A stretch of DNA of 64,000 bases. It comes from an uncultured Clostridia bacterium. Its GTDB lineage: Bacteria > Bacillota > Clostridia > Christensenellales > UBA1242. The stretch's first letter is position 1; each line of letters opens with the position of its first letter. The notes under the pieces are model-generated. The model did not search any database, was not told where the DNA came from, and worked only from the letters and a program-made list of their open reading frames with translations. The position numbers and the translations under genes were made by a program. This document shows positions 1,598 through 54,535 of this stretch, one piece after another. The DNA lies in NCBI GenBank assembly GCA_944383245.1, contig CALWOU010000002.1, positions 70,417 through 134,416 on the forward strand, given 5' to 3'.

Positions 1598-1870
1598 AAG
1601 GCAATGAAAAAGAGAGTAACCGTGGATAAGGCTTTATAGTGAGGCGGTGATAGTGAAAAACCCTAAGACCTCCACCGGTGAAGGACACTTTGGAGTCTTA
1701 TGTGTTGGCGCGAGCAATATCGCGATTAAAGAGTGGCAACGTCAATTTCAATTTGCGTTTTCAAATGTTTTTGAAAATTAGCAATTATTGTGTGATGCGA
1801 CGTAGCAAATTAGGTGGCACCGCGGAAAAGTTTTTCGTCCTAATGAAATTTGTTTCATTAGGTTTTTTTA
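1598..1870 (+). promoter_or_regulatory. T-box leader (Asp specifier) with terminator/antiterminator
   Basis: AGAGAG stem-I motif. GUGAA-G-GAC-A specifier context, with GAC at 1684-1686. T-box sequence AAATTAGGTGGCACCGCG (1806-1825). Terminator CCTAATGAAA/TTTCATTAGG (1839-1862) followed by a T-run. Confidence 0.85.
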
Positions 1871-2039
1871 TTTTTTAAAATAATTACTACGGACAACAAA
1901 AAACACATAAAAAATAAAAATTAAAAAATCCTAAAAAATCAATAATTTAAAAAAAGTAAAAAAAATTTAAAAAAAATTATAAAAAAATACTATAAAATAG
2001 CAAAAATTTTATAAGTAAATAAAAAAATTGAGGTGAAAT

Positions 2040-3776
2040 ATGGTTAAGAAAAATATTTATAGGTCAACCGATTGTGGTAGTTTAAGGCTAAAAGACGCAG
2101 GAAAGACGGAAACCCTTTCTGGATTTGTGGACACTATTAGAAAATTAGGCGGATTAAATTTTGTGGTTCTTCGCGACTTTTATGGAAAAACTCAAATTGT
2201 TATGAATGATGAGGACTGTAATAAACTAAATAAAGAAGACGTAATTATGGTGAGCGGTGTGGTTCGTGAGCGAAGCAGTAAAAATCCAGATATGCCAACC
2301 GGAGATATTGAACTTGTGGCAGATAAAATGACAATCTTAGGAAAATGCGAAAATGTTTTGCCATTTGAAATAAAGTCAAGTAGAGAAGTCAACGAAGATT
2401 TGAGATTAAAATATAGGTATTTGGATTTGCGTGCCGACTATAACAAAAATATGCTAAAATTAAGAAGTGATTTGATGTTGTTCGTGCGCGAATTTATGAA
2501 TAAGGACGGATTTTTAGAGGTTCAAACTCCAATTTTAACCGCCTCAAGCCCAGAAGGTGCGCGCGATTTCTTAGTCCCTAGTAGATTAAATCCAGGTAAA
2601 TTTTATGCTCTTCCTCAAGCACCTCAACAATTCAAGCAGTTGTTGATGACAAGCGGTGTGGATAAATACTTCCAAATCGCACCTTGTTTTAGAGATGAGG
2701 ACGCGAGGGCAGACCGCTCTCCAACCGAGTTTTATCAAATAGACCTTGAAATGGCTTTCGCAACACAAGAAGATGTGTTTGATGTGGTTGAGAGATTATA
2801 TAAAGGAATTTTTGAAAAGTTTGCAAATTTTTTTGTTTCAACTCCGTTTAAACGTTTAACCTACGAAGAGGCAATGCGCGACTATTGTTCGGACAAGCCT
2901 GATCTTAGAAATCCGCTAATCACTTATGACGTGACCGAAATTTTTAAAGATACCGAGTTTAACGCGTTTAAAGGAAATGTTATTAAAGCAATAAAAGTTA
3001 ATTGTGGCGGACTTGGTAGAAAATTCTATGATAGCCTAACCGAATTTTTGCGTTCACGTGAAGCAAAGGGGCTTGCTTATGTGCACGTAAATGATAATCT
3101 TGAATTTGAAACGGGTATAACAAAGTTTATAACACCTAATAATTATAATGATTTAAAAACTTTACTAAATTTCAGCGCGGAGGATACAATTTTCTTCGTT
3201 GCAGATGAGAAATCTAAAGCAATCAAATTCACAGATATGTTGAGGCAAGAGTTAGGTAAAAGGCTAAATTTAATCGACGAAAACGACTATAAATTTGTTT
3301 GGATTGTGGACTTCCCGTTCTACGAATTGGACGATGAGGGAAAAATTGCATTTTCGCATAATCCGTTCAGCCTTCCTCAAGCAGATATTGAAGAGGTTAA
3401 GCGCGACCCATTGCACGCAAAAGCATATCAGTACGATTTGGTTATTAATGGTTATGAGTGTATGTCTGGCGCAGTTCGAAATCATAGGCGCGACCTTATG
3501 GTAGAATTATTTAGCCTAGCAGGTTACGACGAGCAAGTAATCTTAAATAAATTCCCAGCACTATATAACGCATTTAGTTATGGCGCACCTCCACACTGCG
3601 GGGCAGGTATTGGTTTTGATAGGTTAATGATGTTACTTACTCATAACGATTTCATTCGAGATGTTATTGCATTCCCTATGAATAAAAATGGTTGCGACCC
3701 ACTAACCAACGCACCAAACACAGTGGATGAAAAACTCCTCCGCGACGTGCACATCAAACTGCTCACGCAGGAATAA
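2040..3776 (+). CDS. aspS: Aspartate--tRNA ligase
   Basis: 578 aa. Class II motifs (FRDEDARADRSPTEFYQIDLEMAF; GAGIGFDRLMM) and bacterial-type length. RBS GAGGTG upstream. Confidence 0.95.
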   Translation: MVKKNIYRSTDCGSLRLKDAGKTETLSGFVDTIRKLGGLNFVVLRDFYGKTQIVMNDEDCNKLNKEDVIMVSGVVRERSSKNPDMPTGDIELVADKMTILGKCENVLPFEIKSSREVNEDLRLKYRYLDLRADYNKNMLKLRSDLMLFVREFMNKDGFLEVQTPILTASSPEGARDFLVPSRLNPGKFYALPQAPQQFKQLLMTSGVDKYFQIAPCFRDEDARADRSPTEFYQIDLEMAFATQEDVFDVVERLYKGIFEKFANFFVSTPFKRLTYEEAMRDYCSDKPDLRNPLITYDVTEIFKDTEFNAFKGNVIKAIKVNCGGLGRKFYDSLTEFLRSREAKGLAYVHVNDNLEFETGITKFITPNNYNDLKTLLNFSAEDTIFFVADEKSKAIKFTDMLRQELGKRLNLIDENDYKFVWIVDFPFYELDDEGKIAFSHNPFSLPQADIEEVKRDPLHAKAYQYDLVINGYECMSGAVRNHRRDLMVELFSLAGYDEQVILNKFPALYNAFSYGAPPHCGAGIGFDRLMMLLTHNDFIRDVIAFPMNKNGCDPLTNAPNTVDEKLLRDVHIKLLTQE

Positions 3777-5530: not shown

Positions 5531-7060
5531 CTATGTTGTTAATAAATTAGTTTTTATAAATAATTGTACATTTTGATAAGTTTTAATTAATGTGTAATGT
5601 TCGTCAAAAAGTTCGGGTGATGTTTCATAACGACCATTTTCTGTTAAAACAAAATCAGTGTGCGCTTCTCTTACAGCAATTTCCATACTTTCATATAATT
5701 CAGGATAACTCTCACGTGAAAAGTTATTTCTTGCATAAAACTTTTCTGTTGGAACTATATTTGCAGCATTATAATAACCATAGTCTAACATTTCAAAGGT
5801 TAGTAGTGTTGGCGAACTTAAATTATAACTATGTATAGTTTGTGCTACAATAGATTGTGTAGTTGTGTTTTCATCTTTAATTGAAACATATGAATTTATG
5901 TTTGTTACACATAAAGCAAAACTAGACACTACTATCAATACAACAATTAAAGAAATATTGATAAATTTAAATAATTTGTTAGGCAATTTTAAAGGTTCAA
6001 AGTTAAACTTTTCTTTTATACAATTAAACAATTGTACAAAAGCAATTATTAACAAAGGAGTTAAAAAAGTTAAAGGCAAATAGTAATAATTTAATTTTCC
6101 AACTTTCGAAAGCACGGTTATGAACACATATAGCATACATAAATATAAAATGTTTTTATCCTTCACTGCAAAAAATGCTGTTAAAATAAATAAACACAAT
6201 ATTATAATATATTCTAAAGGTGCATAATCATAGGTAAAATATAATGTTGAATTAGATATTGAAATCTTATCATTATATCTAAATAGATTGTCATAAAAAT
6301 AACATTGGAATAAGTCATCAAGTGCTCCAAAACATAAGAAGAATATTAATATAAATAAGGTTAAAGCAAAGAATGAAATCATCATATAGCCAATTGAGGT
6401 AAAAGTTTCCTTATATTCTTTCTTAATCATTTTATATATGAACCACACAACAAACACTGCAATAATTGGTAAAAGTATTATGTATTTGCTCCAAAAAATC
6501 AAACCTAAGTATAAACCTATAAGTAGGGATTGCTTTTTAGATAATGCTTTTCCCTTAATATTTTCATAACCAATTAAAACAAACCACATTATCACGGGCG
6601 AAAAATATTCTTCAACAGCACCACCGCCACCACAAAGGTAAACTGAATTTGCAATAACTATCCCAGATATGATAGCAATTATTATGGATAGATATTTGTT
6701 TATAAATTTATTTAAAAATTTATATGCTAAATACATGTATACGGCTAAAATTATTATTTCCACAATAAATGCACCATAATATGCGTTTCTAGTATTTCCA
6801 GCTATTAGCACAACTATTGCATATAAAAAGTATACAATTGGTCCTTTTTGTTCATACATATCGCGGTATGGAATTTTGCCGTGAATAAATCCATTACCCA
6901 TTGTTATATACCAACTTTGGTCGCAACTAGTAAATTTTGCATACAAAAAAGAATTATTTGCACAAAATGTTAAGAACAAAAAAGCCACCATAAAAAATAA
7001 TATGTATATCAAAATTTTATGCAATAATTCTTTCTTTTTTTCACTTGTTTTTTCTAACAT
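5531..7060 (-). CDS. Polytopic membrane glycosyltransferase (GT39/GT83, ArnT/PMT-like)
   Basis: 509 aa with more than 10 hydrophobic segments. N-terminal loop IPYRDMYEQKGPIVYF resembles the Dx..KPPL loop of ArnT/PMT-type enzymes. Confidence 0.55.
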   Translation of the reverse strand: MLEKTSEKKKELLHKILIYILFFMVAFLFLTFCANNSFLYAKFTSCDQSWYITMGNGFIHGKIPYRDMYEQKGPIVYFLYAIVVLIAGNTRNAYYGAFIVEIIILAVYMYLAYKFLNKFINKYLSIIIAIISGIVIANSVYLCGGGGAVEEYFSPVIMWFVLIGYENIKGKALSKKQSLLIGLYLGLIFWSKYIILLPIIAVFVVWFIYKMIKKEYKETFTSIGYMMISFFALTLFILIFFLCFGALDDLFQCYFYDNLFRYNDKISISNSTLYFTYDYAPLEYIIILCLFILTAFFAVKDKNILYLCMLYVFITVLSKVGKLNYYYLPLTFLTPLLIIAFVQLFNCIKEKFNFEPLKLPNKLFKFINISLIVVLIVVSSFALCVTNINSYVSIKDENTTTQSIVAQTIHSYNLSSPTLLTFEMLDYGYYNAANIVPTEKFYARNNFSRESYPELYESMEIAVREAHTDFVLTENGRYETSPELFDEHYTLIKTYQNVQLFIKTNLLTT

Positions 7061-7310
7061 AATGTTTAAATTATAAAAAAAATTTTTTTGTTAGTCAAAT
7101 ATTTGTGTGAGTTTTAAAATTTTAACATTATTTTCTAAAAAACGTATAATTTTGTCATTTCAACATTTTTTTGCGAAATTTTGTCATTTATTTGTTAAAT
7201 TTTTTGTTTTTTATTATAATGAGATTATAAGATTAAGTTTTGCTTTATTGATTAATAAAGCAATTTATATATTCAACATTATTAAATGATATTATTTTTT
7301 AGGAGAACTT

Positions 7311-8489
7311 ATGAAAAAGAGAATTTTGCTAACCTATATGGAATCAGGAAATGGTCATATCACATCAATTAAATCGATAGCAGATGGATTAAGGCGCTTA
7401 AATTACCCCGATTTAGAATTGATTGAAAGTTATATAATGCAGGAAGGAAACAATCCAACTATGATAAAGTTTAACAACTTTATTATTAAGCAAACTAAAA
7501 ATACTAATAAAATAAAAGGTTTCGGTCCGTTTGTTTTTACGTTGTTGGAAGTTTTAGGTAAACAAAAATTTATGGTGGCGGTGCACCACACTCTTTTTAG
7601 AAAGGCTCTTAATGAAACCTTAAAAGCAATAGATAAATTTAAACCAGATGTGATTGTTTCCACGCATTATTTTATGACGCTTTGCGGTGTTGAATATAAA
7701 AAGAAATATAATAAAGATTGCATATTAGTCACATACAATCCAGATAATAATATACACGCTTGGTGGGACAATCGTGATGGTTTATTTATTGTTAACAACA
7801 AAGAAGCATATGACGAAGCAATAAACAGACGCCATTTCAATCCAGACGAAGTAAAACAAGTGTATTTTACAGCCCGCGATGAAATAGTGAATGCAAAAAT
7901 TGATAAAATGGGTTATAGAGAAAAGTATAATATTCCAAAAGATAAATTTTGCGTTATGCTAGCAGACGGCGCATATGCTAGTGCTAGGTCGGTTAGTGTT
8001 ACTAAAGAACTCTTAAAAACTGACAAACCACTAACAATTATACTACTTGCAGGAAAAAATGAAAAAGTTTACAAAAAATTTAAAGAATTGGAAACTAAAA
8101 CTAAACCTAATGTCACGTTGATGACTTTTGGTTTTATGTCTAACGTGCACGAATTGTATTGTGCAAGCGATTTGTTTATAACAAAAGCAGGGCCAAATGC
8201 AATTCTCGATAGTGTGTTTATGCAAACCCCTGTTTTAATTGATTATTACGCGCATCCAATTGAAAAGGCAAGCACAAAGCTGTTTGTGGATAAATTTAAG
8301 TGTGGTGTGGCAATATATAAACCAAAGAAAATTAGAAAGGCTGTTGAAACCTACATTGACAATCCGCATTTGTTGGATGAGTATGTAAAAAACTGCGCTA
8401 AATTTGACCGTTTCCAAAATGGAGCGGAAGATGTTGCAAAATATATTGTAGAAGAGTTAAAAAAGAGAAATTCAGATAAAAAAGATTAG
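7311..8489 (+). CDS. Diacylglycerol glycosyltransferase (MGDG synthase / UgtP-like, GT28)
   Basis: 392 aa. N-terminal ESGNGH motif plus a C-terminal GT-B region (ITKAGPNAI) typical of processive glycolipid synthases. Confidence 0.75.
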   Translation: MKKRILLTYMESGNGHITSIKSIADGLRRLNYPDLELIESYIMQEGNNPTMIKFNNFIIKQTKNTNKIKGFGPFVFTLLEVLGKQKFMVAVHHTLFRKALNETLKAIDKFKPDVIVSTHYFMTLCGVEYKKKYNKDCILVTYNPDNNIHAWWDNRDGLFIVNNKEAYDEAINRRHFNPDEVKQVYFTARDEIVNAKIDKMGYREKYNIPKDKFCVMLADGAYASARSVSVTKELLKTDKPLTIILLAGKNEKVYKKFKELETKTKPNVTLMTFGFMSNVHELYCASDLFITKAGPNAILDSVFMQTPVLIDYYAHPIEKASTKLFVDKFKCGVAIYKPKKIRKAVETYIDNPHLLDEYVKNCAKFDRFQNGAEDVAKYIVEELKKRNSDKKD

Positions 8490-46614: not shown

Positions 46615-48270
46615 TTATTGATTAAGATTTAAAACGAATAAATTTAATCTGTTTTTACATTCGGTTGTGCCGAGGATTTTCATAATTTCGAATAGGTTTG
46701 GGCTATCGGTTCGCCCGGTGATTGCAAGGCGAACTAATTTTGATGCGTCTGTTATATTTCCAGCATACATTTCAGGATTTTGTTTGTAAGTTTTATTGTC
46801 CACGAAATTAAATGAGAAAGCCACCTGTTTTAAATTTTCAAACCATTCAGCATTGTCAGATAATTGACCATGTTGTTCGCTATATTTTTTTATAAAGTTT
46901 TTTGCAATTTGTTTATCTATGTTGCCAACGTCTATATCTGAAAGCTTAAAATTAGGCAAAATGTAGTTATAAAGTGATAAAATTTCGCTAAAATATGTTA
47001 TGTCCTTTCTTGGTCTATCTCCACCGCGGTCAATAGACAAAACTTTTATTAGTACGTCTTTATTTTCTTCTAAAACCTTTAAATCGTCCTTATTCCATTC
47101 GCGCGCCCAAGTGATTGCGTTATTGTAGACTTCTTCGGCGGAGTAGTGCGAGATTATTGTTTTTGAAATATTGTCTAATTTCATAAAGTCAAATAGAGGG
47201 TTAGTAACACCTATTTTTTTAAGGCTAAATGGAAATTTGGTGTATGGTAAATCTGGATTATTTTTCCTCCACATCTCAAAATCACTATTAAGTAAGGTTA
47301 ATAAATATTCGATAATTGCGTTAATAGGGTAACCTTTGTTTAAGAAGAAACGAACGTCTGCAAAACTATCTTTTCGCTTGCTAATTTTTCGCTTGTTTCC
47401 GTTTTCATCTAGTACGCAAATGTTAGGAGTGTGCGCGTATTTAAATGGAGCGAAACCAAACGCACGCGACAACTCAATATGAACAGGAAGTGATTGATAC
47501 CATTCTTGCCCGCGAACAATGATTGAAGTGTGCATAAGAGTGTCATCCACAATGTGCGCGAACGCATAAACAGGCACTCCGTTTGATTTTATAAGCACGT
47601 CATCACGCGCATTTTCTCTCAATTCTTTTTTACCTTTAATGGCATCAACAAATTCGTGAGTTTTATTACTATCTCCAACAGACAAAAGTCGAAGAGCAAA
47701 TTTTTTTCCTTGTTTTAAATTTTCTTTAATCTCGTCAATCGTTAGATTTCTACAAGAGTCGTGATCAATCAAATTGTCATTTTCGCTTAATTCTTCCTCG
47801 CGTTTACGCTTTATTTCTTCTAAATTTTCACTATCTTTACAAAAACACGGAAAAGCGCGCCCGCGTTTAACTAATTCGTGCGCAAACGCGTGATAAATTT
47901 CAATTCTATCAGACTGCTTGTATGGTCCATAATTTCCAATTTCAGGATTTGCGCCTCTATAACCTTCATCAGGAGTTAAACCTAATCTTGTTAGCATATC
48001 GTATGCAATTTCGCCTGCGTAATCAACTTCGCGCTTTGAATCAGTGTCCTCTAAACGTAAATAAAAAATTCCATTGGTTTCATTTGCTAGCATTCTGTGC
48101 ACTATAGATTGATAAACTTGACCAATATGAAGATATCCTGTAGGGCTAGGGCCAAGGCGAGTAACTTCTCCAGACACGTTTCTTTTTGGATATTTGTTTA
48201 AATAAAAACTTATATCCTGACACTCAGGATATAAGAGGTTAGCGAGTTCAATATATTCTTTTTCAGTCAT
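46615..48270 (-). CDS. gltX: Glutamate--tRNA ligase
   Basis: PSPTGYLHIGQ (HIGH) and KISKRK (KMSKS). 551 aa. The start overlaps the stop of the upstream gene. Confidence 0.9.
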   Translation of the reverse strand: MTEKEYIELANLLYPECQDISFYLNKYPKRNVSGEVTRLGPSPTGYLHIGQVYQSIVHRMLANETNGIFYLRLEDTDSKREVDYAGEIAYDMLTRLGLTPDEGYRGANPEIGNYGPYKQSDRIEIYHAFAHELVKRGRAFPCFCKDSENLEEIKRKREEELSENDNLIDHDSCRNLTIDEIKENLKQGKKFALRLLSVGDSNKTHEFVDAIKGKKELRENARDDVLIKSNGVPVYAFAHIVDDTLMHTSIIVRGQEWYQSLPVHIELSRAFGFAPFKYAHTPNICVLDENGNKRKISKRKDSFADVRFFLNKGYPINAIIEYLLTLLNSDFEMWRKNNPDLPYTKFPFSLKKIGVTNPLFDFMKLDNISKTIISHYSAEEVYNNAITWAREWNKDDLKVLEENKDVLIKVLSIDRGGDRPRKDITYFSEILSLYNYILPNFKLSDIDVGNIDKQIAKNFIKKYSEQHGQLSDNAEWFENLKQVAFSFNFVDNKTYKQNPEMYAGNITDASKLVRLAITGRTDSPNLFEIMKILGTTECKNRLNLFVLNLNQ

Positions 48271-49373
48271 TAAATATTCTCCGTTAAAATTGTTAGTGCA
48301 TTGTTTAAAGCAATGGTGTTTTGTGTGGTAAGGGCAGTGTAATCTTCAATAATCTTTGCGCAAGTTAGTTGATAATCAGACGCATTATCATCTGATATGA
48401 TTTGAGTATAAACTATTTCGTTGCACGCAAGGTTGTATTCATCTTTAATGTTATTTATACACTCTTGAATGTTGTATAACTCAATTGACGCGTGATAAAA
48501 ATCTTCTTTTCTGTCACTTGTGTTGATGTATGAACCAAGTGTTGAATTAAATGTTAAGTCAATCAACTCTACGTCGGCAATATAGTCGTTAAAACTTGAA
48601 GGGAAATCTGGAAATTCTTCATTTTCGCGAGCCACCAAAGAAGAGTATAACCTCATTCCATTCACATTATTAACAATGTAGACTTGAGATAAATTCACAA
48701 TTTGCTCACAAATTCTGCTTCTTAAATTCACAACCACACGAGAAGCGTCAAACTCAGAGAGTGTTTGAGTTGAATAATTAGGATTTGCGTCTGTTATAGC
48801 ATAATTAAAATAGATATTAGATAGGGTGTAACTAAGGTTAAATGCTGTTGTGTATAGATTTTCATACGATTCAAATAGGTTGGTGAGCCTAGTCATATGA
48901 ACGTCTGTGTAATAATCTTCGCCCGTTCTAAGAATGTCAACCACGTTGATTGTGCGATTGTACATATTTGTTAGAGCCGAGTCAAACTCATCAAGAGCAA
49001 CTTTTAGTGCGTCGCGGTCACCAGCGCTTACATTTAAATTGTTAGAACTGCAAACTTCAAAATAACTAGAAAAGAATTTTAGCGAATTATTTAGTAGCGG
49101 ATTATAAAAATTGGTTAAATTGCTGTATGGTTTGTTTAGAAAAATGTATGAAACATTTTGATTTCCTTGAATTTGAATATCGTCATAGTCAAACACAATT
49201 TCGTGATTTGAATTGAGAGATAGATATTCGTGTTTTGTAACAATTGTCATATAATCCGTATATAGATTAGATAGTGAGTAACTATTGTCATCCCCGCAGG
49301 CAGTGAAAACAAATAATCCGGGCACTAGGATTAAACACAATATTAAACTCAAACAAAATTTTTTAATTCTCAT
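48270..49373 (-). CDS. Lipoprotein, unknown function
   Basis: Lipobox FVFTACGDD. N/Y/D-rich 367 aa. No family recognised. Confidence 0.5.
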   Translation of the reverse strand: MRIKKFCLSLILCLILVPGLFVFTACGDDNSYSLSNLYTDYMTIVTKHEYLSLNSNHEIVFDYDDIQIQGNQNVSYIFLNKPYSNLTNFYNPLLNNSLKFFSSYFEVCSSNNLNVSAGDRDALKVALDEFDSALTNMYNRTINVVDILRTGEDYYTDVHMTRLTNLFESYENLYTTAFNLSYTLSNIYFNYAITDANPNYSTQTLSEFDASRVVVNLRSRICEQIVNLSQVYIVNNVNGMRLYSSLVARENEEFPDFPSSFNDYIADVELIDLTFNSTLGSYINTSDRKEDFYHASIELYNIQECINNIKDEYNLACNEIVYTQIISDDNASDYQLTCAKIIEDYTALTTQNTIALNNALTILTENI

Positions 49374-49412
49374 AAATATTTCCTTAATTTGTCTAATTTT
49401 TTTAACTTGAGA

Positions 49413-50270
49413 TTACAATAAGTTATATATTGCTTTAAAATAATAAATTGCTTTTTCTGTTTCACTTAAATTATCTGAGTAAACGTTAATTCTATTTATA
49501 TTGTCTGCAAAATTTTCTGCAAAGTTAACTTTATCCACGTTTTCATAGTGCAAAATAAAATTGTTATTGTCACTTTCAAAATTTGTGGTGTTAGAAGGAG
49601 TGATTAATATTGAATTTTCAAGTTCGAAGAAATTGTTAATAGTGGTTAAATTAATTTCATTGCGTATAACTTGTAATCCGTTTATATCAAGAGTTGTGTC
49701 ATCAAGAGTTGTTAAAACAATGTTTAGATAAAGGTCTATCATACTAAACTTTAAATCTGCATCTTTATTTATTTCTAAATTGTCTAATTCAGAATTTATA
49801 AACATCAAAGTGTCTGCTAAGGCGAGGTTCATATTGCAAAATTGCACAACAATTTCGTTAGCACCAGTGTTTGGATCGAATATGTCACTATTATTCACTC
49901 TGTTGATATATGAGTCAATAAGGTTAGAAACTTCATTTTGCAACGCAAGATAATTATCAAATCTAGAGATGATTTCATTTTCATCTACGTCGTGGTTTTT
50001 AACACTTATCATATATGTGTTGAAAGTGGATAAAATTTCTTCCAAATTTGTTTGAGTGGTTTCTAAATTTGAAAACCTACTTCCTGTTAATTCAATCAAA
50101 TCATCCACTTTACCATCAAATTCAACATTTGCACTTGAAAATAAATAACTTGACACATATGCCTGGCTATCCTGCCTTCTAGTTAAATGCCTATAAAAGA
50201 AATAACACGTACCAGCAATGCTGGCTAGCACGAGCAAAATTATCATAAGGTATTTAAAAAATTGTTTCAT
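49413..50270 (-). CDS. Membrane-anchored extracytoplasmic protein, unknown function
   Basis: N-terminal TM LMIILLVLASIAGTCYFF. 285 aa. Composition similar to the 48270-49373 product. Confidence 0.45.
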   Translation of the reverse strand: MKQFFKYLMIILLVLASIAGTCYFFYRHLTRRQDSQAYVSSYLFSSANVEFDGKVDDLIELTGSRFSNLETTQTNLEEILSTFNTYMISVKNHDVDENEIISRFDNYLALQNEVSNLIDSYINRVNNSDIFDPNTGANEIVVQFCNMNLALADTLMFINSELDNLEINKDADLKFSMIDLYLNIVLTTLDDTTLDINGLQVIRNEINLTTINNFFELENSILITPSNTTNFESDNNNFILHYENVDKVNFAENFADNINRINVYSDNLSETEKAIYYFKAIYNLL

Positions 50271-50444: not shown

Positions 50445-51167
50445 ATGAAAACAATAATTATTGCAGGTGCGTCTGGAGGAATAGGAAATAGTATTGCAAA
50501 AAAATTAGATAAATCAGGTAACCGCTTAATTTTATTAGGTTATAAAAATGAGAAGGCGCTAACCGAATTATCTAAAAATTTAAAATGTGAGAGTTGTGTT
50601 TTTTTGTGTGACTTATCTAATTATAATGAAACTAAAAAACTCTTTGACGATATAATAAAAAAATATAGAAAAATAGACGCATTAATTTCTTCAGTTGGAG
50701 TTAGCAAAATAAATCTCATTCAAGATGTTAGCGAAAATGAATTTGACTATATAATGAATTCAAATTTTAAATCCAATTTCAATATAACTAAATTTGTTTC
50801 AAAAAATATGATTTTAAATAAGTCGGGCAAAATTGTCTACATTTCATCAATGTGGGGCAAGGTTGGAGCAAGTTGCGAAAGTGTTTATTCAGCAAGCAAG
50901 GGTGCATTAAATAGTTTTGCTCTCTCAATTGCAAAAGAGTTGGCGCCATCTAATATAAATGTCAATGTTGTAAGCCCAGGATTGATAGACACTAAAATGA
51001 ACATCAACCTATCAAAAGAAACAATCAATCAAGTGATAGAAGAAACTCCACTAAATCGAATTGGAAAACCTAGCGATGTTGCTAATTTGGTGGAATATTT
51101 AATAAGCGAAAAAGCAAGTTTTATAACCGGTCAAATTATTTCAATTGACGGCGGATTTAGTATGTAA
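50445..51167 (+). CDS. Short-chain dehydrogenase/reductase (FabG-like)
   Basis: GASGGIGNSIA (TGxxxGxG), NSNF, catalytic YSASK, PGLIDT. Confidence 0.8.
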   Translation: MKTIIIAGASGGIGNSIAKKLDKSGNRLILLGYKNEKALTELSKNLKCESCVFLCDLSNYNETKKLFDDIIKKYRKIDALISSVGVSKINLIQDVSENEFDYIMNSNFKSNFNITKFVSKNMILNKSGKIVYISSMWGKVGASCESVYSASKGALNSFALSIAKELAPSNINVNVVSPGLIDTKMNINLSKETINQVIEETPLNRIGKPSDVANLVEYLISEKASFITGQIISIDGGFSM

Positions 51168-51327: not shown

Positions 51328-51356
51328 TTGACAAAAATTTAACAAAATGATAATAC
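51328..51356 (+). promoter_or_regulatory. Promoter of the large structured RNA
   Basis: TTGACA (51328-51333), 17-nt spacer, TG-extended TAATAC (51351-51356). Confidence 0.6.
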
Positions 51357-51363
51357 ATTATTG

Positions 51364-51930
51364 TACGAAGGCGCAGTATTCTAGTCAACTAAAGCAAATG
51401 AGGGTGCCGAAATAAGCATCGCTGGCAAAACTGTGAAGTTCGTGGTGCTGGCTTTGATTGCCCAAATCGGGGCTGGTGCTGGGAGTTAAGATTTTTGGGA
51501 GATACATAATGGCATATGTGTTAACCCCCAATTATCGTGGAGACCTTATCTGGTAGGTAGAGTAGTGATTGGCTACGATCTATCACTAAGGATTGAACCT
51601 GCATATGGCGAAAGTTATGTGCAGTGTAGCCTGCTTTGAGTGCGAGTGTTGGGATAGGGCGACAACTTAAAATACTTTCAAAGTACACGAAAATTTTAAG
51701 TTGCCCTTGAAATCGCGAGTGCAAAATAAAGATAAGTTTGTTTGATGTTGTTAAGGAAAACTTCTAGGCTGTTCATTAGAGATTTTCAGGGGATTATAGT
51801 GTGGTCTAAGTGGCGATTCGGTGCAAGTTTTGCGTAAAGGGAAACCGCTTGGCTGGTAACGGACAAGTGCAAAATTGGGAAATCCAACCGAACCTATGCC
51901 GCAAGGTTTACCTTGAAAATTGCCTTCGTT
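51364..51930 (+). ncRNA. Large structured non-coding RNA (about 565 nt), OLE-like candidate
   Basis: No credible ORF. G+C-enriched island. Closing helix 51365-51372/51922-51929. GAAA-capped 11-bp stem 51599-51624. Bulged helix 51657-51673/51693-51706. Several further helices. Followed by a 4-TM DxxxD protein gene. Confidence 0.6.
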
Positions 51931-51976
51931 ATTTTTAAAATTATCACGTAAGTGTGAATATATAAAGGGAAATAAA

Positions 51977-52699
51977 TTGAAAGAAGATATTGATAGTAAA
52001 AATTTAGATGAAGAGTTAAAAAAGAGCGAAAAAGCGGATAGTAAAACGGACGAAAAGTCAAACGAGAATATAACGCAGAATGTTGAAATTAAAAAATTAG
52101 TAAAGGACAATAAACAAAACACCAAAAACATTGAGAAAAAGTCAAAAAACAAACCTAAAAAACAGTCTGCTTGGGTTTGGCCGATTAAAGTGCTTGTTAT
52201 TGCGCTTGTTTTATCTTTCTCGTTTAGTGTTATAAGTGAGTTGACGCTTTCTAATGCCAACATTGTTTTGGCTGTGATTGTTATATTGGTTTTTATAGGA
52301 ATTGCTGTGTTAACCGATATGATTGGTTTAGCAGTGACCACAAGTAACTTAGAAACATTTACAGCAATGGCATCAAGGAAAGTTAAGGGTAGCAAACAGG
52401 CAATAGCACTTGTTAAAAATGCAGATAGAGTGAGTTCCATTTGTTCGGACGTGTTAGGTGATGTTTGCGGAATTTTGTCTGGTTCTGCAGGCGCTAGCAT
52501 ACTTGCAAAAGTTGTTATGGAGAGTGCGGGCGATTTCACAGTTGTGTTAATCTCATCTGTGGTTTCTGCTGTTATTGCAGGGCTTACAATCTTTGGAAAG
52601 GCTGCACTAAAAAGATATGCAATTTCTCACGCAGACGGCATAACCTTAACCCTTGCAAAATTTCTAAACATTTTCACTCGCAAAGACAAAAAAGATTAA
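51977..52699 (+). CDS. 4-TM membrane protein with a Lys/Glu-rich N-terminus and DxxxD motif (OapA-like candidate)
   Basis: There is no in-frame ATG before the first TM. TTG 51977 is preceded by AAGGGA at 51965-51970. Four hydrophobic helices. SDVLGDV (DxxxD) at 52448-52462. Confidence 0.45.
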   Translation: MKEDIDSKNLDEELKKSEKADSKTDEKSNENITQNVEIKKLVKDNKQNTKNIEKKSKNKPKKQSAWVWPIKVLVIALVLSFSFSVISELTLSNANIVLAVIVILVFIGIAVLTDMIGLAVTTSNLETFTAMASRKVKGSKQAIALVKNADRVSSICSDVLGDVCGILSGSAGASILAKVVMESAGDFTVVLISSVVSAVIAGLTIFGKAALKRYAISHADGITLTLAKFLNIFTRKDKKD

Positions 52700-52741
52700 A
52701 AAATATTGACTTTTAAGTATTTAATAATTATAATAGATATA

Positions 52742-53209
52742 ATGGAAAGTTTTGAATATTTTTGCGATTTTAAATCCGAAGAATTTAAAGAAATTTTTAC
52801 GGATTATTATCTTAGTGAAGGTATAACTTTAAAAGAAAATACAAAAGTTTTTGACGAAATAGAAAATTCTAGCAAAAATTTTGGTACTAAGTGTGTTGTA
52901 TATAGAAAGGCAAATAAAATTGCTGGTTTTATTTTGTTTAGAATTATTAAACTTCGCGATGAGAAAAAATTTTTTAAATATAATTTTGGATACATTGAAG
53001 AACTTTATGTTGTGGAGAATGAAAGAAATAAGCATGTTGCAACAAAACTCATAGAACAATTTGAAATTTATTTGAACCAAAATAAAATTCGCACAATTGT
53101 TTTAACGGCAGACGAAAAAGTTTATGACTTTTACAAAAAGAAAGGTTTTAAAGAAGATAATTCTTTGACTTGTGAAAACGAATTGAAATGTTTTATTAAA
53201 AGAATCTAA
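52742..53209 (+). CDS. GNAT family N-acetyltransferase
   Basis: VVENERNKHVATKLI...YDFYKKKGF matches the acetyl-CoA binding motif A region. ATG 52742 lies 7 nt after the -10 of TTGACT-N17-TATAAT (52706-52734), so the mRNA may be leaderless. Confidence 0.7.
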   Translation: MESFEYFCDFKSEEFKEIFTDYYLSEGITLKENTKVFDEIENSSKNFGTKCVVYRKANKIAGFILFRIIKLRDEKKFFKYNFGYIEELYVVENERNKHVATKLIEQFEIYLNQNKIRTIVLTADEKVYDFYKKKGFKEDNSLTCENELKCFIKRI

Positions 53210-53311
53210 TATAAAAAATTTACAATTAACTATTAAAAATAAGGCGGTAAAATATTTGCCTTATTTTTTTAATTTTTTTGTAAATCTAATTTAAAATTGC
53301 TTAACAAGTTT

Positions 53312-54535
53312 TTAAGTGGTGGCGGTGTTCCAAACGCGATTATTTTTAAACCATTCTGAGTCTTTTAAAATGGTGTTGTTATTAGAGCAGTTTACTCCAA
53401 ATTTTATCTCGGCTGTTGAAGTTTCAGGAAGGGATATAACCACGATGTTGCCATTAAATGAAGTAAATTCGTTGTTATCATAATCCACGCACAAAGTGGT
53501 GACGTAAATGTTTTCAATATTTCTTATTGCCATTCTGTCTATAAACTCTTGAGTAGGGAATTGGTTGAGTGGATTGTCTGTGTACTCACTGCTTCCTGCG
53601 CAACAACAAATGCAAACCGTTTTAGGCTGAATTGCATCTAGTAAAACATCAGTGGAAGAAGTTTTGCTTCCGTGGTGACCTGCTTTATATAAGTCAACTT
53701 GAGGAAGCTCGTTCATTTCAACTAAATATTCTTCGCCGTCCGCTTCTAGGTCGCCTGTAAATAAGAAATGTTTTGCATCGTTTCCCGTTCCTTGATTTAT
53801 CATAACGCAAACTGAATGGTCGTTTTCACTGTTCGCTCTGTTTTCATAATAATAACTATCTAAAATTTCAAGTGTAACATCATATTCGGCATTTAAAGTC
53901 CACACTTTTTGCGCTTTCACACCATTTTCATTCTCGCTTTCGTTAACGCATTCAAGCGCTGTGAAATGCTCTGCGCCCGCTTCAATCTCTACGTTTAACT
54001 CGCGAAGATAATTTTTGTATGTTGCAGTGTCCTCTTTACCACTTGTGATTTGCGAGAACGTTATAATCGTTTCACACTCGTATAAATCAAATATGCTTTG
54101 AACCTTTTCACTCGTTGCGAATCCTGCATAGTGGTCAGTGTGCGCGTGAGTTATAATCACGTATTCAAGAGTGTTGTCCGTCACATATTGATTTAAATAT
54201 TCGCTAACTGTTGCAATGCTATTTGATTTCGAACCGCAGTCAATTAAAATATCAATATCGCCAACTTTTATGTAAGTGCAGTCGCCCGTGTACTTATTGC
54301 CGAGTTCTAAAAAATGCACACTTACTTCGCCAGGTTCGTTAGTTAGAGGAATGGCAGACAATTCTTCGCTTTCATTGTATGAATAAAAAACGTCCTCACT
54401 AATCACCAACTCTTCACTTAATGGAAGAGTAAAATAAGTGTAGCCTATAAATCCGCCCACTGCACCAATTAGCAAAACTAAAATTAAGATGACTATGTTT
54501 AATGCAACGTTGGATTTTTTACTTTTTCTAGCCAT
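53312..54535 (-). CDS. Membrane-anchored MBL-fold hydrolase (ComEC C-terminal-domain-like)
   Basis: N-terminal TM. ITHAHTDHYAG (HxHxDH) and AGHHGS motifs, as in the ComEC/Rec2-related metallo-beta-lactamase domain. Confidence 0.6.
   Translation of the reverse strand: MARKSKKSNVALNIVILILVLLIGAVGGFIGYTYFTLPLSEELVISEDVFYSYNESEELSAIPLTNEPGEVSVHFLELGNKYTGDCTYIKVGDIDILIDCGSKSNSIATVSEYLNQYVTDNTLEYVIITHAHTDHYAGFATSEKVQSIFDLYECETIITFSQITSGKEDTATYKNYLRELNVEIEAGAEHFTALECVNESENENGVKAQKVWTLNAEYDVTLEILDSYYYENRANSENDHSVCVMINQGTGNDAKHFLFTGDLEADGEEYLVEMNELPQVDLYKAGHHGSKTSSTDVLLDAIQPKTVCICCCAGSSEYTDNPLNQFPTQEFIDRMAIRNIENIYVTTLCVDYDNNEFTSFNGNIVVISLPETSTAEIKFGVNCSNNNTILKDSEWFKNNRVWNTATT

Follow-up and report, generated by a model that had tools for sequence, protein, structure and literature searches.

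Descriptions of OLE RNAs (ornate, large, extremophilic RNAs) and of their membrane protein OapA date back to 2006 to 2011. OapA binds the RNA at a ratio of 2:1 and brings it to the membrane, and in Halalkalibacterium halodurans the ole gene belongs to an extended operon whose other members are isoprenoid and DNA-repair genes. Here, we describe an ole-oapA locus on contig CALWOU010000002.1 of an uncultured Clostridia bacterium, within a stretch of 64,000 nucleotides that was analyzed as a whole and is referred to as the window. We establish the identity of the RNA and of the protein encoded next to it, their linkage, the covariation of the RNA fold, a conserved promoter, and the loss of the hairpin P13.

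H. halodurans depends on the particle to tolerate cold, short-chain alcohols, and excess Mg2+ and to grow on some carbon sources (PMC10898510, PMC9723947). Hairpin P13 in the numbering of Yang et al., with its GNRA loop and a bulged U, is the primary OapB-binding site, and P14.1 is a weak secondary OapB site in H. halodurans (PMC7936274). The mutation U84A abolished OapC binding in the same species (PMC9723947). Loop L9.3 forms the symmetric kissing loop of the OLE homodimer, termed bridge B3 (PMC12286853), and a transmembrane arrangement of OLE RNA was recently proposed (PMC12265935). Fernando and Breaker (2024) distinguished full-length OLE RNAs (at least 390 bits) from variant 1 (310-390 bits) and variant 2 (235-310 bits); the OapB site is often missing from variant 1, which is found in gut clades that have reduced genomes and are largely without OapB and OapC, and the presence of OLE correlates with sporulation genes (PMC11332333). 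A GTDB-wide survey has catalogued 2,822 OLE genes, and P13-less variants from gut clades with reduced genomes are among them.

Identity and fold of the RNA

The only match found when the whole window was scanned with Rfam 15 at gathering thresholds (cmscan) is RF01071 (OLE), at 51352-51942 of the plus strand. Its 363.6 bits (E = 3.2e-103) compare with a gathering score of 50, and it spans model positions 1-616 of 616 without truncation. Conserved OLE sequence blocks, such as GCAGUAUUCUAGUCA, are present in the RNA. On the same strand, 47 nt separate the end of its closing helix (P1) from TTG 51977, the start of a gene for a membrane protein with a DxxxD motif. An earlier reading of the letters, made without database searches (the sequence-only reading), had proposed either an OLE/OapA locus or a new analogue of one. 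The former is borne out by the RF01071 score together with the DxxxD family that follows OLE in every related locus, whereas the latter is refuted by the full-length match. We are as good as certain that 51365-51929 is an OLE RNA and 51977-52699 its membrane partner OapA. The locus is an already known and catalogued combination of OLE RNA and oapA, and its annotation with Rfam is routine. The genes and their expression signals are as follows.

51328-51356, plus strand: extended -10 sigma-A-type promoter of ole, with -35 TTGACA (51328-51333), TG (51348-51349), and -10 TAATAC (51351-51356)
51352-51942, plus strand: OLE RNA gene, extent by the RF01071 match, structured core at 51365-51929
51966-51971, plus strand: ribosome-binding site of oapA, AAGGGA, read from the sequence (AAGGAA in the related locus L001)
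51977-52699, plus strand: oapA, 240 amino acids; K/E-rich N-terminal tail up to about residue 62, four transmembrane helices, residues 158-162 reading DVLGD

The linkage of RNA and protein extends to related genomes. OapA homologues led to the OLE loci L001-L005, which belong to a metagenome-assembled genome of Candidatus Onthoplasma faecipullorum (Clostridia, Christensenellales), the nearest genome match with 82% identity in OapA, and to four other contigs, with OapA identities of 52-68%. In each of these loci, the OapA gene is immediately preceded by a full-length Rfam OLE match (336-361 bits). Scanning metagenomes for the invariant 15-mer GCAGTATTCTAGTCA gave 120 loci, ∼85 of them with a near-full-length OLE, and wherever enough downstream DNA was present, the next open reading frame (ORF) almost always matches the OapA profile. 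The pattern D[VIL][ILV]GD occurs in all 64 complete ORFs that follow metagenomic OLEs and match this profile, and the homology of the window OapA to proteins after other OLEs reaches E values as low as 1e-100.

The Christensenellales relatives place the host among the Bacillota, typically anaerobic or extremophilic, that carry OLE RNAs. Onthoplasma belongs to the Christensenellales family UBA1242 of GTDB, a family of gut anaerobes, and has genomes below 1 Mb that keep sporulation genes (PMC12306168). Genetic code 4, a possibility prompted by the "-plasma" name, was rejected, as long ORFs read normally under table 11.

The RNA region contains few ORFs. Those of at least 60 amino acids are just 51521-51724 (minus strand) and the antisense frame 51751-52539 (minus strand), both of which the sequence-only reading had named when it found no credible ORF; that statement holds at this length, and three smaller ORFs (42-55 amino acids) overlap the region as well. 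The G+C content of the element is 0.38-0.47, compared with 0.15-0.16 in the immediate flanks, in keeping with the contrast already remarked upon, and with 0.31 across the window.

Mapped onto the window, the Rfam consensus comprises 145 pairs, of which 132 are canonical. Together with the closing helix, it was tested against slid partners and 500 shuffles in a MAFFT alignment of 67 distinct OLE sequences. In this alignment, 80.8% of the cells are paired, compared with 41-46% when partners are slid, and the covariation score is 0.462 versus ∼0.13; not one of the 500 shuffles reaches any observed measure. Changes on both sides occur in 127 of the 153 pairs. Between the window and L001, the RNA is ∼93-95% identical and the flanks are far more diverged, and the differences that fall in helices are compensatory. 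The following helices are referred to below.

51365-51372, plus strand: closing helix, 5' strand, pairing with 51922-51929; unannotated in the Rfam consensus
51922-51929, plus strand: closing helix, 3' strand, pairing with 51365-51372
51405-51425, plus strand: hairpin just 5' of J4a/5, stem GGUGC/GCAUC, loop CGAAAUAA, from the cmscan alignment
51599-51624, plus strand: 11-bp hairpin with a GAAA tetraloop, 11 of 11 pairs in the Rfam consensus
51657-51706, plus strand: long bulged hairpin, 13 of the 14 pairs proposed in the sequence-only reading in the consensus, loop 51680-51688
51846-51867, plus strand: P14.1-equivalent hairpin, CUUGGCUG-GUAA-CGGACAAG with a GNRA tetraloop, from the cmscan alignment

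Every helix string quoted in the sequence-only reading is present where it had been placed, and three of the proposed helices belong to the conserved fold. The closing helix, which brackets the whole element, is paired in 90.9% of the cells and changes on both sides in seven of its eight pairs; its variants among OLE RNAs include GAAGG/CCUUC, GGUGG/CCACC, and GGCGG/CCGCC. The GAAA hairpin corresponds to consensus helix 9, where both partners change in 11 of 13 pairs within the 67-sequence alignment. The long bulged hairpin is likewise a consensus helix, where GG/CC is replaced by AA/UU in L001, whereas the ACTTT-CA-AAGT tip proposed for it lies outside the consensus. The remaining helices, GGGAGTTAA/TTAACCCCC (51481-51489/51521-51529), TAGTGAT/ATCACTA (51563-51569/51582-51588), and CAAGG/CCTTG (51902-51906/51911-51915), are not conserved. 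Jointly, they are paired in 44% of the cells, compared with 34-53% for slid partners and a shuffle mean of 43%; they are chance pairings and use bases that the consensus pairs elsewhere.

Two further hairpins concern the binding of proteins. The hairpin at 51405-51425 is the counterpart of the consensus hairpin ggCGGg-cCUAAAAAu-CCGcc, and from the naming of J4a/5 (PMC9723947, PMC12286853) we take it to be P4a, the published OapA docking site. The corresponding helix 2 shows 32% pairing in the alignment and is without covariation support; MAFFT misaligned the hairpin of this clade, and we treat the value as an alignment artefact that is no evidence against the helix. The P14.1 equivalent (helix 22) is paired in 84.7% of the cells, and all nine of its pairs change on both sides.

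OapA and the expression of the locus

The product of oapA contains four hydrophobic stretches, which appear as four long helices in an AlphaFold2 model (mean predicted local distance difference test score of 76, with means of 75-93 for 10-residue blocks over the membrane domain). The DVLGD motif, encoded at 52448-52462, places DxxxD in the third membrane helix; helices and motif alike had been recognized from the translation. Homologues number 486 and are mostly ∼185 amino acids long; in an alignment of 33 of them, neither aspartate of DxxxD varies. A search of NCBIfam, which has no OapA model, gave noise matches alone. A sequence search of the PDB with OapA returned nothing at E values up to 1, and to our knowledge no OapA structure has been deposited.

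The only domain match is PF01595 (CNNM), which at 24.8 bits stays below its gathering score of 28.4; CBS and CorC domains are absent. When the AlphaFold2 model was used for a fold search, the top three PDB matches were chains of MtCorB (7M1T_B, 7M1T_A, and 7M1U_B; probability 0.97-1.00). Both results recall published observations, in which OapA forms the next-best class of matches to the CNNM hidden Markov model after MpfA, and OapA of H. halodurans superimposes on the archaeal CorB 7M1U (PMC11332333). OapA differs from CNNM domains by the DxxxD motif and a fourth helix (PMC11332333). The sub-threshold CNNM match is the published signature of OapA (PMC11332333) and neither a contradiction nor the mark of an unrelated transporter family, an outcome that the sequence-only reading had named as speaking against its proposal.

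The K/E-rich N-terminal tail of ∼55 amino acids is common only to the closest relatives of the window OapA. Hydrophilic, low-complexity N-terminal tails of 30-95 amino acids, dissimilar to one another, are also found in the OapA proteins of six other, unrelated OLE loci (L027, L088, L038, L104, L013, and L006). Variable cytoplasmic tails of this kind seem to recur among OapA proteins. The idea that the tail of the window OapA forms a novel domain was rejected, given that tails of unrelated sequence occur sporadically in other lineages and that the tail itself is predicted to be disordered or is modeled with low confidence; we read it as a variable disordered tail.

The promoter of ole, proposed in the sequence-only reading, was not listed by a consensus promoter scanner, because the -10 hexamer of the window, TAATAC, ends in C. 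Its motif TTGACA-N14-TG-N-TAATA(T/C) is kept in all six loci of the clade (the window and L001-L005), and the spacer varies freely. Transcription is predicted to start at ∼51362-51364, 1-3 nt before the closing helix. Translation of oapA had been proposed to begin at TTG 51977, and this position is confirmed, as no other in-frame start codon precedes the first transmembrane helix; it aligns with the ATG codons of the L002, L003, and L005 orthologues. The insertions and deletions that distinguish the window from L001 have lengths divisible by three downstream of TTG 51977 and not divisible by three upstream of it, which indicates that oapA starts here and that the longer ORFs, called from 51920, overlap the RNA.

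Between ole and oapA, the sequence-only reading had seen neither a terminator nor a promoter. The former part stands, as the sole convincing terminator-like site, a 13-pair stem, lies at 53235-53268, after the downstream GNAT gene. The latter does not, since a promoter-like match (10/12) overlaps the 3' end of the RNA at 51913-51941; such matches are common in this AT-rich DNA. Because no terminator intervenes, transcription from the ole promoter most likely would run on into oapA, and co-transcription of the two genes is likely in the window.

Departures from other OLE RNAs and alternative readings

The most conspicuous departure concerns the P13 hairpin, at the following position.

51820-51822, plus strand: site of the absent P13 hairpin, where ∼3 nt join the 5' strand of P12.2 to P14

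In the cmscan alignment, 21 model positions between P12.2 (5' strand) and P14 are left unmatched, and only 2 nt of the window take their place. In the 67-sequence alignment, the P13 region measures 10 nt in the window and in L001-L005 and 11 nt in L045, compared with 27-31 nt in 57 of the 67 sequences, nearly all of which have a GNRA-like loop. From these lengths, we conclude that OLE RNA of this clade has lost P13, the main OapB docking hairpin; by analogy, the particle would probably have fewer protein partners. The OapB site by which the full-length class is recognized is lacking here. The Rfam scores of the clade (336-364 bits for the window and L001-L005) are the lowest in the sample; 20 other OLE RNAs score 385-526 bits, 19 of them with an insert in the P13 region and the P13-less L045 at 385 bits. 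The window score falls in the variant 1 range, an approximate assignment because the published bands rest on a different covariance model. The presumed P7-P9 helices measure 48, 26, and 100 nt, compared with medians of 45, 30, and 99 nt, and are not shortened. Absence of P13, a low score, and a reduced-genome host are all inside the variation already published.

The kink-turn (K-turn) has kept C85, the tandem G89-A90, and GGAGAC in J6/7, whereas model position 84 (window position 51428, in the C helix of the J4a/5 K-turn) is A in place of the consensus U. The A is found across the clade, and by analogy with H. halodurans it may hint at a weakened OapC site. The candidate partners of position 84 in J5/6 and J6/7 are A as well.

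The loop of the long bulged hairpin (51680-51688) carries the palindrome GUAC at 51683-51686, as do all six loci of the clade. The equivalent L9.3 loop of other OLE RNAs mostly reads GGCC, and in a few cases GAUC or AGCU. With GUAC at the L9.3 position, self-complementarity is preserved, and judged by its sequence, this further self-complementary variant fits the published dimer bridge B3.

By analogy with other species, we infer the co-transcription, dimerization, membrane tethering, and stress-tolerance role of the RNA in this host. The RNA would be transcribed from its own extended -10 promoter, fold into the conserved multi-helix architecture, and dimerize as in H. halodurans and Clostridium acetobutylicum, with GUAC fitting the kissing-loop bridge. 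OapA dimers, with their CNNM-like four-helix fold and DxxxD motif, would then hold the RNA at the cytoplasmic membrane.

Some observations weigh against this picture of an OLE RNA that is obligatorily co-transcribed with its OapA and serves the known particle. The promoter-like match at the 3' end of the RNA could drive oapA alone. L004 has a classic intrinsic terminator (∼3560-3640; AAGCACAGG-TTTT-GCCTGTGC followed by a T run) in a gap of 451 nt between OLE and oapA, and hence ole and oapA are not always co-transcribed. The assignment of the protein to OapA rests on synteny, motif, and fold, and on sequence homology to proteins that follow other Rfam-confirmed OLEs. Finally, none of the 10 free-standing small ORFs (66-147 amino acids) of the 64-kb window has a KOW-like or L7Ae-like Pfam match, as would be expected of OapB or OapC.

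Other explanations of the locus have to be weighed against the same evidence. The SDR (short-chain dehydrogenase/reductase) and GNAT neighbors are unlike those in the textbook locus of H. halodurans, the host lives in the gut and has AT-rich DNA, and the N-terminal tail of OapA is unusually long, all of which could indicate an unclassified large structured RNA with a membrane protein that is analogous but unrelated to OLE/OapA. This is extremely improbable, because the OLE model is matched along its whole length (363.6 bits) with 132 of 145 consensus pairs canonical, the invariant OLE blocks are present, the protein is homologous to those after other OLEs (E values to 1e-100), and covariation in 67 OLE RNAs excludes an artefact of the Rfam match. 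We also judge it very unlikely that the element acts chiefly in cis, as a 5' leader regulating oapA, and not as a trans-acting ribonucleoprotein scaffold. In favor of a leader, the element precedes oapA by 47 nt in the window, and both lie on one strand with no terminator between; L004, however, has its terminator and 451-nt gap before oapA and a still fully conserved RNA, and the ∼570 nt of conserved structure far exceed the needs of any known leader. Moreover, the OLE RNA of H. halodurans is stable and abundant and binds OapA, OapB, and OapC (PMC9723947, PMC7936274), and that of C. acetobutylicum forms a dimer of defined structure (PMC12286853).

A decaying, non-functional OLE relic in a shrinking genome would account for the loss of P13, for A instead of U at K-turn position 84, and for Rfam scores that are the lowest in the sample, in a host lineage with genomes below 1 Mb (PMC12306168). 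However, the RNA has stayed ∼95% identical to that of L001 while the flanks diverged, its helix changes are compensatory, and six diverged loci, with OapA identity down to 52-68%, have kept the P13-less architecture, the promoter, and an intact oapA. A reduced genome with ∼90% coding density also would not retain 600 nt of useless DNA (PMC12306168), and we attach very little probability to a relic. We retain the reading as an OLE RNA with its OapA partner. Going further, a near-minimal, two-component OLE ribonucleoprotein (RNA and OapA) might operate in this lineage of genomes below 1 Mb, with the OapB hairpin deleted, the OapC K-turn possibly weakened, and the lineage-specific K/E-rich tail of OapA perhaps replacing the RNA contacts of lost partners. 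We regard this proposal as unlikely; if true, it would provide a natural minimal OLE ribonucleoprotein, useful for finding the core function.

Neighboring genes and comparison with known systems

The flanking genes had raised doubts in the sequence-only reading, because they do not resemble the isoprenoid and DNA-repair context of OLE. These doubts are unfounded, as a non-isoprenoid gene context is usual in this clade. Upstream of ole lies the SDR gene (50445-51167), the product of which passes the NCBIfam equivalog cut-off for YmfI, the EF-P 5-aminopentanone reductase (260 versus 238 bits), and its sequence suggests that 5-aminopentanol modification of EF-P is kept in a genome below 1 Mb. L001 has an ORF of 256 amino acids at this position upstream of OLE, a candidate counterpart by size and position alone.

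The GNAT acetyltransferase gene (52706-53209) follows oapA. Its promoter, TTGACT-17-TATAAT (11/12), has a -10 element that ends 7 nt before ATG 52742, and no Shine-Dalgarno sequence is present, so that the mRNA is probably leaderless. L001 has just a 94-amino acid ORF at this position, partly overlapping the metallo-beta-lactamase-fold gene, and the GNAT gene may not be a constant member of the neighborhood.

A metallo-beta-lactamase-fold gene (400-407 amino acids) occurs near ole-oapA at 53312-54535 (minus strand) in the window and a few kb away, at 1825-3027, in L005. The window copy resembles the C-terminal domain of ComEC (TIGR00361, 69 bits, below the cut-off). In L002, the gene is split into two shorter Lactamase_B ORFs (6972-8181), and in L001, an ORF of 407 amino acids (6901-8124) has the same length and position and is a candidate on these grounds. 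The arrangement may reflect conserved local synteny or merely a compact genome. A block of three genes, which encode a Glu/Gln-tRNA synthetase-like protein of 551 amino acids and proteins of ∼367 and ∼285 amino acids without a Pfam match, lies upstream of the SDR gene in the window (46615-50270, minus strand) and downstream of oapA in L003 (4626-8249). Its shifted place indicates local rearrangement around ole within the family.

As a further copy of a described pair, the locus adds little, and a standard Rfam scan annotates it at once. Its modest value lies in the retention of a ∼570-nt RNA and its anchor protein under purifying selection in genomes below 1 Mb, which speaks for a core function independent of OapB. 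GUAC adds a palindromic variant at the proposed kissing loop of the dimer, and the stand-alone promoter-ole-oapA cassette could serve as a compact test construct.

Among described OLE RNAs, the copy in the window most resembles variant 1 (PMC11332333), with which it shares the full-length model match, the invariant blocks, covarying helices, oapA as the next gene, an Rfam score (363.6 bits) inside the approximate variant 1 band, and the absence of P13, as reported for many variant 1 RNAs from gut clades with reduced genomes. Variant 1 was described with shortened P7-P9 (PMC11332333), whereas the P7-P9 equivalents here are of about median length and only P13 is missing. The typical variant 1 host named by the authors is TANB77 (PMC11332333), whereas this clade belongs to Christensenellales UBA1242.

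As in H. halodurans, ole precedes oapA on one strand, OapA combines four transmembrane helices with DxxxD and a CNNM-like fold, and the RNA includes a GNRA hairpin of the P14.1 type and most of the conserved joining regions. In H. halodurans OLE, P13 provides a GUGA loop and a bulged U for OapB, and the K-turn provides U84 for OapC; in contrast, the RNA of the window has no P13 and an A at position 84. Furthermore, the locus, which has a promoter of its own, is flanked by a YmfI-like reductase gene and a GNAT gene, and OapA bears the extra K/E-rich N-terminal tail of ∼55 amino acids.

The C. acetobutylicum OLE homodimer, known from cryo-EM (PMC12286853), shares with the RNA of the window the helices of the 5' domain and a self-complementary tetranucleotide at the L9.3-equivalent loop (B3). 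The palindrome is GUAC here, read from the sequence, and not GGCC, GAUC, or AGCU as in the comparison set. Finally, OapA is related to the CNNM/CorB/MpfA Mg2+ transporters (PF01595) through its weak 24.8-bit match and through MtCorB as the best fold match in the PDB. It differs from them in having no CBS or CorC_HlyC domains, four instead of three membrane helices, and the DxxxD motif, which is absent from CNNM domains (PMC11332333).

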